Below, in pieces: positions 12,829 to 15,315 of a stretch of DNA of 31,454 bases. Source of the DNA: Brevinematia bacterium (GTDB lineage Bacteria; Spirochaetota; Brevinematia; DTOW01); NCBI GenBank assembly GCA_046299455.1, contig JBKBIJ010000001.1, forward strand, positions 1 through 31,454, in the 5' to 3' direction. The notes beneath the pieces were generated by a model. The model was given only the letters and a program-made list of their open reading frames with translations. It did no database searches and was not told where the DNA came from. Every line of letters starts with the position of its first letter. Within the stretch, counting starts at the first letter, position 1. The translations under genes and the position numbers were made by a program.

Positions 12829-13013
12829 GATTTAATTTTATAACATTTGTAAGAAAAGTATCTAATTTCATACTTAATATATATTTTGGACTTGAATAGG
12901 TGACCTTAGAGGTGGCAACTTTTAAAATCTCATCAGAATAATGCATTTCTGATTCTCTTGATTTAGACTTTGATAAAACGCGGTAAGATGTTTTTGGTTT
13001 TAGAGTTAGGTAT

Positions 13014-13190
13014 TGTTTCAAAATTTGTAGAAGTTTCTAGAGTCTATCGTTCTATGGAACTGAAATTCTTAAAGAGTTTTATATAACAATAATACCGTAA
13101 AAGAGTTTATCCAAATAGGTTTTAAGTAATAATATAATTTGTAGTGGGATGTGGGTAAAATAAGGTTTAGGAAATTGGATTTTTGATACA
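13014..13190 (+). mobile_element. Best-preserved MITE-like repeat unit (177 bp)
   Basis: Left end TGTTTCAAAAT (13014-13024) versus right end ATTTTTGATACA (13179-13190; reverse complement TGTATCAAAAAT). Internal TATGGAACT...AATACCGTAA...TTATCCAAATAGGTT modules are shared with other copies. Confidence 0.65.
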
Positions 13191-13267
13191 TTTATTGTAC
13201 AATTTCTTGTAAAACTTTAAATTTTATTAGTAATTTATTTAAAATAACAGATTACTGGAGGGAAATT

Positions 13268-13528
13268 ATGGCTAAGGATCCTAATGTAAAGGATAGAAGT
13301 AGAGGTAAAGGATTGGGTGTTAAGCTGTATGATGGGCAGTTTGCCAAAGCTGGTAGCATAATAGTTAGGCAAATAGGTAATAGGATATATCCGGGTGAGA
13401 ATACAGGTCAAGGAAGAGACTTTACTATTTTTGCTCTTAAGGATGGTGTTGTTAAGTTTTACACAAGGAGGGGAAAGAAGTTTGTTAGTGTTAGAGAAAT
13501 TTCTAGTGGGGGATTAGATGATAAGTAA
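13268..13528 (+). CDS. rpmA: 50S ribosomal protein L27 with divergent N-terminus
   Basis: [16 protein letters not shown]....[19 protein letters not shown] is the L27 core; GGAGG RBS at 13257. Confidence 0.9.
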
Positions 13529-13868
13529 GGAAAAATTAGAAGAATTAAAAGAAAGGTTATCTAAAGAAAAATTACAAATACTTTCCGATATCTTTGGAGA
13601 AGAAGTAGCTATAAAGAGTTTTGTAAGTCAATCTGAAGGTGATATTGCTGATAAAGCTAGTGATTTTTATGAGTCTCAGTTGCTTGCAAGTATTTCTGGG
13701 GTTCAAAGGGAAATAATAGACAAGATAAATGAAGCGCTTAGAAGGATTGAAGATGGTGTTTATGGTAAATGTAGAATGTGTGGTAGTCCTATAGAAATAG
13801 AGAGGTTAGAAGCAATTCCGTATACCGATATTTGTTCTGAGTGCGCTAAAAAGACTGTAAGAAGGTAA
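13518..13868 (+). CDS. dksA: TraR/DksA C4 zinc-finger protein
   Basis: Coiled-coil with DxxD tip (GDIAD); [25 protein letters not shown]...CSEC. Confidence 0.85.
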
Positions 13869-13875
13869 TATATTT

Positions 13876-15315
13876 ATGGTTGGTGGTTTTAAGATTTCAG
13901 AGGTCGTTGAAGGTATAAAAGGTGGGAAAATATCTTGTTATGAATTAGTTAGTGAATATATAAGGAAAATAAAAGAAGACAACAATTCTAAATACCCTAT
14001 AAATGCATTTATAACGATTGATGAAGATAATGCTCTGAGAATTGCTAAACGTATAGATGAGAGTAGATCTTCTCTTAATGGTAAGCTTCTAGGTGTACCT
14101 ATTGCTATAAAGGATAACATAAATGTTGAAGGGTTACCAACTACATGTGCTTCTAAAATTCTTGAAGGATTCGTATCTGTTGAGGATGCTACTGTTATCA
14201 CGAAGTTAAAACAACAGGGATGTGTTATAATTGGTAAAACAAACATGGATGAATTTGCTATGGGGTCATCAAATGAGACTTCGTACTATGGTGTGGTTAG
14301 GAATCCCCATGATAGGACTAGGGTACCTGGTGGATCTTCTGGAGGATCTGCTGCAAGTGTTGCTGCTGATTTTTGTGTTGCATCTTTGGGGTCAGATACA
14401 GGTGGATCTATAAGACAACCTTCGGCGTTTTGCGGAGTTGTAGGTTTAAAACCTACTTATGGACTTGTTTCTAGATATGGGCTTGTTGCTTTTGGTTCGT
14501 CTCTAGATCAGATTGGCCCTATTACTAAAAGCGTTAAAGATGCTGCTATAATTTTGGATGTCATTGCTGGATATGATCCCAAGGATTCGACTTCTGTTAA
14601 ATTTAACGATACATATTTTTCTGGCAAATTAGATGATAGGTTTGAATTGTCTGGAACAGTTGTTGGATTGCCGGAAGAATATTTTACGGATGATATACAG
14701 AAAGATATACTGGATAATATATATAGCGTGGTTAAGATTCTAGAATCCAAAGGCGCCAAAGTAAAGAAAGTTTCTCTGCCCAAAACAAAATACGCGATAC
14801 CTACTTATTATATAGTGGCTCCTGCTGAAGCAAGCTCAAATCTTGCTAGATTTGATGGTATAAGGTACGGTCTAAGAGAAGAAGCTAAGTCATTGAAGGA
14901 TGTTTATTATAACACGAAAACCGTTGGTTTTGGTAAAGAAGTAAAAAGAAGAATAATGTTGGGTAATTATGTTTTGTCGGCAGGTTATTATGATGCTTAT
15001 TATCTTAAGGCTTTAAAAGTTAGAACTTTGCTCAAAAATGACTTTAAGAGAGTTTTTGAAGAAGTTAACTTTATAATTACACCTACTACACCTACTACTG
15101 CATTTAAGATAGGTGAGAAAGTTTCTAATCCTATAGAAATGTATTTATCGGATATATTTACTGTTACGGTAAATCTCGTTGGTACATGTGCTATATCTAT
15201 TCCAATTGGTAAGGACAGTAATAATCTACCCATAGGTATGCAAATAATAGGTAAACCTTTCGAGGATAGTGAATTACTTAAGTTTGCTTATTTTGTTGAG
15301 AAATTGATAGATTAA
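13876..15315 (+). CDS. gatA: Asp/Glu-tRNA amidotransferase subunit A
   Basis: Amidase signature GGSSGGSAA, GSDTGGSIRQP, SSNLARFDGIRYG, EVKRRIMLG, YYDAYYLKA, MYLSDIFTV. Confidence 0.97.
   Translation: MVGGFKISEVVEGIKGGKISCYELVSEYIRKIKEDNNSKYPINAFITIDEDNALRIAKRIDESRSSLNGKLLGVPIAIKDNINVEGLPTTCASKILEGFVSVEDATVITKLKQQGCVIIGKTNMDEFAMGSSNETSYYGVVRNPHDRTRVPGGSSGGSAASVAADFCVASLGSDTGGSIRQPSAFCGVVGLKPTYGLVSRYGLVAFGSSLDQIGPITKSVKDAAIILDVIAGYDPKDSTSVKFNDTYFSGKLDDRFELSGTVVGLPEEYFTDDIQKDILDNIYSVVKILESKGAKVKKVSLPKTKYAIPTYYIVAPAEASSNLARFDGIRYGLREEAKSLKDVYYNTKTVGFGKEVKRRIMLGNYVLSAGYYDAYYLKALKVRTLLKNDFKRVFEEVNFIITPTTPTTAFKIGEKVSNPIEMYLSDIFTVTVNLVGTCAISIPIGKDSNNLPIGMQIIGKPFEDSELLKFAYFVEKLID

Follow-up and report, generated by a model that had tools for sequence, protein, structure and literature searches.

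The N-terminus of bL27 is the only protein element beside the bacterial peptidyl-transferase centre (PTC), and what it does there is still debated, with catalysis, tRNA stabilisation and gatekeeping against tmRNA-SmpB all proposed. Canonical L27 starts MAHKKxGGSxxNGRDSxxxR-LGVK, and its first residues (A-H-K) reach the tRNA ends in the PTC. In archaea, uL16/L10e fills the space otherwise taken by the bL27 tail.

The HKK tip is called broadly or universally conserved in current papers (broadly: PMC12871816). E. coli strains whose bL27 lacks three or six residues are viable even though these truncations "prevent bL27 from reaching the PTC"; packing of the tail against uL16 is also possible (PMC7979765). 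According to Maguire (2005), as cited in PMC4647459, loss of three L27 residues brings peptidyl-transferase activity down to the level of an L27 deletion; L27 has also been described as dispensable for catalysis itself (PMC4647459). In the model of a 2026 preprint, tmRNA-SmpB is barred from translating ribosomes by the tip of bL27, and an HKK-to-AAA mutant behaves like a deletion (PMC12871816). For spirochaetes, the tabulated L27 tips are AHKK, ATSK, ATKK and AR-K, and Prp is present in every spirochaete although none has a long L27, the Prp cleavage motif of long L27 being (F/L)F before A(S/H)KK (PMC9405229).

Here we describe an L27 gene in a window of 31,454 nt (G+C 30.8%; GCA_046299455.1, contig JBKBIJ010000001.1), the whole stretch of DNA that was analysed, from a member of the Brevinematia. 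We label its family f1, which comprises 8 genomes in 3 genera.

Identification of the rpmA gene

The gene and the elements at its 5´ end are as follows.

13257..13261, + strand: Shine-Dalgarno sequence GGAGG, 6 nt before the ATG (read from the sequence)
13268..13528, + strand: rpmA, the sole bL27 gene, 86 aa (Pfam PF01016, 91.3 bits; phmmer; one match in the source genome)
13271..13324, + strand: codons 2-19, the remodelled N-terminal tail, five residues shorter than canonical (alignment and codon differences)

The PF01016 match, far above the cut-off of 20.5 bits, covered only profile positions 13-79 and left positions 1-12 unmatched. A phmmer search of all PDB chains returned 79 sequences with E <0.001, among them T. 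thermophilus L27 (E 3.8e-19; query residues 7-77 against chain residues 13-83). Residues 16-77 align across the whole globular fold of canonical bL27, and in the full-length chains of E. coli and Thermus the counterpart of S11 is S16. This clean offset of 5 agrees with a preliminary description of the locus, in which the tail was put at about five residues short. That description had also recorded a GGAGG ribosome-binding site with no better start upstream, and both observations stand: relatives carry GGAGG, GGGGG or GGAGG-like motifs at the equivalent place, and there is no in-frame ATG, GTG or TTG upstream of 13268. In two related f1 genomes, a stop codon lies one codon 5´ of the ATG, so that a longer tail is impossible. 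Copies of rpmA were counted, as had been proposed, and each genome has one, with a single PF01016 place in the source genome and one protein match in each of 40 relatives (41 genomes); four of the other f1 genomes searched are 95-96% complete.

The source genome, a metagenome-assembled genome (MAG), totals 1.92 Mb on 285 contigs at 89% completeness, and a short tail in such an assembly might be an artefact (a mis-called start, a sequencing error or a pseudogene) or belong to a specialised paralogue beside a normal gene. We consider this very improbable, given that independent assemblies have the identical N-terminus, that the upstream stop codon fixes the start in two genomes, that the gene is under the strong purifying selection described below, and that there is one rpmA match per genome. 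The objection that correcting a sequencing error might restore a canonical N-terminus fails on the same independent assemblies. Judged from its sequence, the product of 13268-13528 is a true bL27, the sole and functional copy in a deep, fast-evolving Brevinematia family.

Conservation and selection of the remodelled tail

The N-terminal extension of f1 bL27 has 15 residues before LGVK, compared with about 20 in the canonical protein, with an AKDP tip and a VKDRS motif. The HKK tip and the Gly-rich hinge are absent, AKDP standing for AHKK and VKDRS for NGRDS, and neither an A-H/S/T-K-K tip nor the NGRDS motif was found. Asp4 and Pro5 occupy positions where Lys/His are broadly conserved; Ala2 and several basic residues are kept.

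All eight f1 genomes have the N-terminus MAKDPN[VL]KDR[ST]RGKGLGVK. When 5.8 billion proteins were searched with a word-indexed method using query residues 1-40, only 11 clusters carried the f1 tail, all other matches being canonical MAHKK proteins that aligned from residue 11. In the form MAKDPN[VL]KD[RK][ST]RGKGLGVK, the tail is found in the eight genomes and in these 11 protein clusters (90% identity), which come from independent metagenomes. At least six independent samples yielded the rpmA locus of the closest relative, on 18 contigs in all and in the order rpmA-dksA-gatA-clpC. One NCBI MAG record labels the L27 of this nearest relative "Sulfolobales archaeon", probably reflecting a mis-binned bacterial contig.

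Pairwise comparison of the eight f1 genomes gave 215 synonymous versus 14 non-synonymous differences in codons 2-19, and 672 versus 363 in codons 20-76, which encode the body of the protein. The DNA of the tail thus drifts while its peptide is fixed, more so than the folded domain, indicating that the tail is functional and not a decaying remnant. The new f1 tail is under strong purifying selection at the protein level. The preliminary description had called the tail non-conserved; it is non-canonical, yet nearly invariant within f1. The proposal of a lineage-specific ribosome variant fits these results well, the gene being the sole rpmA in eight of eight f1 genomes, with a fixed tail under purifying selection.

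bL27 tails across the class and phylum

An alignment of L27 N-termini across related taxa had been suggested as a check, and it showed that the f1 tail is family-wide, the other families of the class having canonical tails or tails three residues shorter. Among 401 sampled Spirochaetota genomes, the weakest scores for full-length L27 were those of f1. Following up other low scorers led to the tails of two further families, f46 and f55, and of Treponema-like genomes. The N-terminal tails of the groups compared with f1 are listed here.

Brevinematia families f2, f5, f6 and f7: MAHKK tail
Brevinematia family f4: MASKK tail
Brevinematia family f3: MA[AGS][GS][GS][ST][GA]KNGR; MAAGGSGKNGRDS; three residues shorter
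Spirochaetota family f46: MAHKGVNGRDS; five residues shorter, tip and NGRDS kept
Spirochaetota family f55: MAGASGARNGRDS; three residues shorter
Treponema-like genus: MGRTRGGSGAKNGRDP; full length
Treponema-like genome of 1.1 Mb: MARKRGG; full length

In a tree built from concatenated S19, L22, S3 and L16, f1 formed the sister group of the remaining families of the class, with a very long branch (0.755); it was not adjacent to f3, a placement in which long-branch attraction is possible. Since f1 and f3 are not sisters in this tree, the shortenings in f1, f3, f46 and f55 look independent, and Spirochaetota would have shortened the bL27 tail at least four separate times. For the same reason, we rejected the idea that the f3 tail, with three residues lost, is an intermediate on the way to the loss of five in f1. 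Alone among these four families, f1 lost length, basic tip and NGRDS together. It is the extreme case of spirochaete tip variation, a real but modest trend.

Among the best 150 representatives from 1.84 billion proteins, about seven had a shorter-tailed L27 and four were seemingly truncated at the start; two that were checked came from single 1-kb contigs. Short-tailed L27 proteins of doubtful quality are thus scattered elsewhere. We found no paper describing the short f1 tail, and the objection that such a tail might be common and already documented in the clade falls away, although spirochaete tip variation itself is known and tabulated (PMC9405229).

These comparisons bear on a rival reading in which the tail, only shorter, continues to reach the PTC and fulfils its canonical role through different chemistry. 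The strong purifying selection on the tail and the retention of Ala2 and several basic residues are consistent with this, as is the f46 tail, which is equally short and keeps both the AHK tip and NGRDS; length change alone may therefore be tolerated. On the other hand, E. coli truncations by three and six residues were reported to stop short of the PTC (PMC7979765), and in f1 Asp4 and Pro5 replace the broadly conserved Lys/His (PMC12871816), which we read as facing tRNA phosphates. We think it unlikely that the f1 tail continues to act at the PTC in this way.

Gene neighbourhood and ribosomal-protein operons

The surroundings of rpmA in the window comprise an intergenic region and two downstream genes.

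12829..13267, no strand: AT-rich intergenic region in place of the ancestral rplU-prp (no Rfam match)
13518..13868, + strand: dksA-like gene, 116 aa (PF01258, 34.8 bits; C4 zinc finger CRMC...CSEC; tip DIADKA, of the form DxxDxA)
13876..15315, + strand: gatA (Amidase), 479 aa (PF01425, 526 bits; synteny)

The gene order in all other families of the class is rplU-prp-rpmA-dksA-like. In f1, rplU, prp and rpmA lie on three different contigs, and in the source genome a trpA-like gene follows rplU; the gene is thus detached from rplU, as had been noted. No leader RNA or defined promoter was detected 5´ of the detached rpmA, the region having no Rfam match and its promoter-like sites, including a weak one at 13216-13245, not exceeding chance. 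The 11-nt overlap with a dksA-like gene was likewise read correctly, the dksA-like open reading frame starting at 13518; across f1, this junction varies from -11 to +11 nt. The dksA-like product scored 22.1 bits against PF21157, under the cut-off of 27, and the CxxC...CxxC and D[IV][AV]D[KR]A motifs are present in nine of nine f1 dksA-like sequences examined. Within the class, gatA lies 3´ of dksA solely in f1.

The adjacency of rpmA and dksA is common to every family of the class, including those with canonical MAHKK tails; it is therefore ancestral and unrelated to the f1 tail. Single copy number and this shared position mark f1 rpmA as an orthologue of the other bL27 genes. An alternative L27 paralogue tied to DksA/GatA regulation, the other possibility raised in the preliminary description, is not borne out, since there is no second copy and the adjacency is ancestral to the class. 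Class-wide, a ribosomal-protein gene, rpmA, is paired with a short DksA-like gene directly 3´, and this pairing is conserved.

A Prp homologue (PF04327, 101 aa) with its His/Cys dyad kept is encoded as a stand-alone gene beside accD, well away from rplU and rpmA (genome G000, contig C36, L077:2075-2380). Loss of Prp was accordingly rejected as an explanation, this homologue with His and Cys being present, though unlinked.

The S10/spc superoperon is also broken, after rpmC, on contig C150 of G000 (L118:273-3473). The order there is S19-L22-S3-L16-L29, followed by genes for an ABC-transporter ATPase and a Sua5/TsaC-like protein in place of S17-L14-L24. Taken with the dispersal of rplU, prp and rpmA, the break shows that ribosomal operons are widely fragmented in the f1 lineage.

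Ribosomal partners of the tail

The model in which the tip acts as a gatekeeper against tmRNA-SmpB (PMC12871816) raises the possibility that f1 lost the tail upon losing trans-translation. SmpB, however, was found in eight of eight f1 genomes (196-199 bits) and full-length tmRNA in seven (151-176 bits), the eighth, G007, being 82% complete and giving weak partial matches only. The presence of both refutes loss of trans-translation as the cause, and we give this explanation next to no credence.

The uL16 protein of f1 scored 112-119 bits against Pfam in all eight genomes (L119-L125; L118:1562-1981), versus 170-189 bits for full-length uL16 from the rest of the class and from four spirochaete families of other classes. 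Expressed as change in Pfam score in f1, the drops for L16 (-33%) and L27 (-30%) were the largest among the proteins compared, the values for the others being 0% for S19, -11% for L22, -12 to -16% for S3, +17% for L29 and -6% for SmpB. The f1 protein has a 2-residue N-terminal extension and is changed at G87, A113, A120 and F130 (E. coli numbering), positions that are invariant in 23 other sequences; the G87 change removes a Gly of the GKGKG loop.

With the low score, the extension and these four changes, and with the reported capacity of the tail of bL27 to pack on uL16 (PMC7979765), the two proteins, which flank the tRNA acceptor ends, might have been remodelled together in f1. Yet uL16 has gained no space-filling insertion (139 versus 137-138 aa) and keeps the RMGKGK core of its loop, S3 and L22 of the source genome also change otherwise-invariant columns at rates similar to those of uL16, and the short-tailed families f3 and f46 (three and five residues lost) have an ordinary uL16. 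The S3 and L22 changes and the ordinary uL16 of these two families leave co-evolution of uL16 and bL27 suggestive only, and we regard it as doubtful. We rejected the idea that a loop or extension of uL16 takes up the vacated space, there being no insertion and only the 2-residue N-terminal extension.

The 23S rRNA was compared for two f1 genomes (L130, L131), the source genome having no assembled 23S rRNA. These showed 108 lineage-specific changes, at positions invariant in two other Brevinematia families, a Treponema-like genome and E. coli, versus 21-23 for f2 and f3. At the 32 PTC inner-shell positions checked, f1 does not differ from the other spirochaetes in the comparison, and 2586 is the single one that departs from E. 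coli; the f1-specific changes within domain V fall outside the PTC core. A change in PTC rRNA accompanying the loss of the tail was rejected, the inner-shell core being unchanged.

Discussion

We consider it likely that f1 ribosomes carry a sole bL27 whose rebuilt, selected tail is threaded through rRNA and stops short of the tRNA 3´ ends. The N-terminal extension would have been rebuilt by loss of five residues from the HKK/Gly-rich segment, with AHKK becoming AKDP and NGRDS becoming VKDRS. [quoted passage not shown] With no bL27 tip at the PTC, f1 ribosomes would work like those of the E. coli strains lacking three or six residues. Given that residue i of f1 corresponds to canonical residue i+5, f1 bL27 can be likened to a naturally occurring deletion of residues 2-6, and the tip that remains, K3 D4 P5, appears poorly suited to binding tRNA phosphates. 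From length and chemistry, it is most likely that the tail is still anchored in rRNA and has lost contact with the tRNA 3´ ends; on a straighter path, a tail of 15 residues might still approach the PTC. Considering the long f1 branch in ribosomal proteins and rRNA, the tail could have changed in the course of global drift and then been re-optimised locally, its function not having shifted in any specific way.

A fuller picture, in which f1 ribosomes have no protein residue of any kind at the tRNA 3´ ends, keep tmRNA-SmpB and a canonical PTC core, and have a co-adapted uL16, is one that we put forward tentatively and lean against. If true, f1 would offer, in nature and under selection, a counterpart to the E. 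coli bL27 tail truncations and would allow a direct test of whether the tip stabilises tRNA or acts as a gatekeeper against trans-translation. A lineage that keeps tmRNA and SmpB while holding a tip that is shorter, acidic and proline-containing under strong selection amounts to a natural experiment for models of tip function.

Compared with canonical bL27 of E. coli and T. thermophilus, the f1 protein shares the globular domain, the single copy, Ala2 and a basic, unstructured N-terminal extension. It differs in the loss of five tail residues, the AKDP tip, the missing Gly-rich hinge, the VKDRS motif and an RQ[ITV]G sequence in place of RQRG, and its gene lies outside the rplU-(prp)-rpmA operon. 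With other spirochaete bL27 proteins (PMC9405229), f1 has in common a variable tip and the presence of Prp without a cleavable L27 extension; the tips of the others are substitutions at nearly full length, whereas f1 also lost five residues and NGRDS and has unlinked prp and rplU. As in bacteria with the Firmicute-type long L27, the f1 genome encodes a Prp homologue with a His/Cys dyad, but the propeptide and the (F/L)F|A(S/H)KK motif are absent, with no upstream start, and the f1 tail is shorter, not longer. The E. coli truncations by three and six residues and the HKK-to-AAA mutant show losses of length and of HKK comparable to those in f1, and these mutants are viable, with slow growth, more trans-translation and hypersensitivity to acylaminooxadiazoles (PMC12871816, PMC7979765). 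Unlike these mutant tails, the short tail of f1 is wild type, fixed and selected throughout a family.
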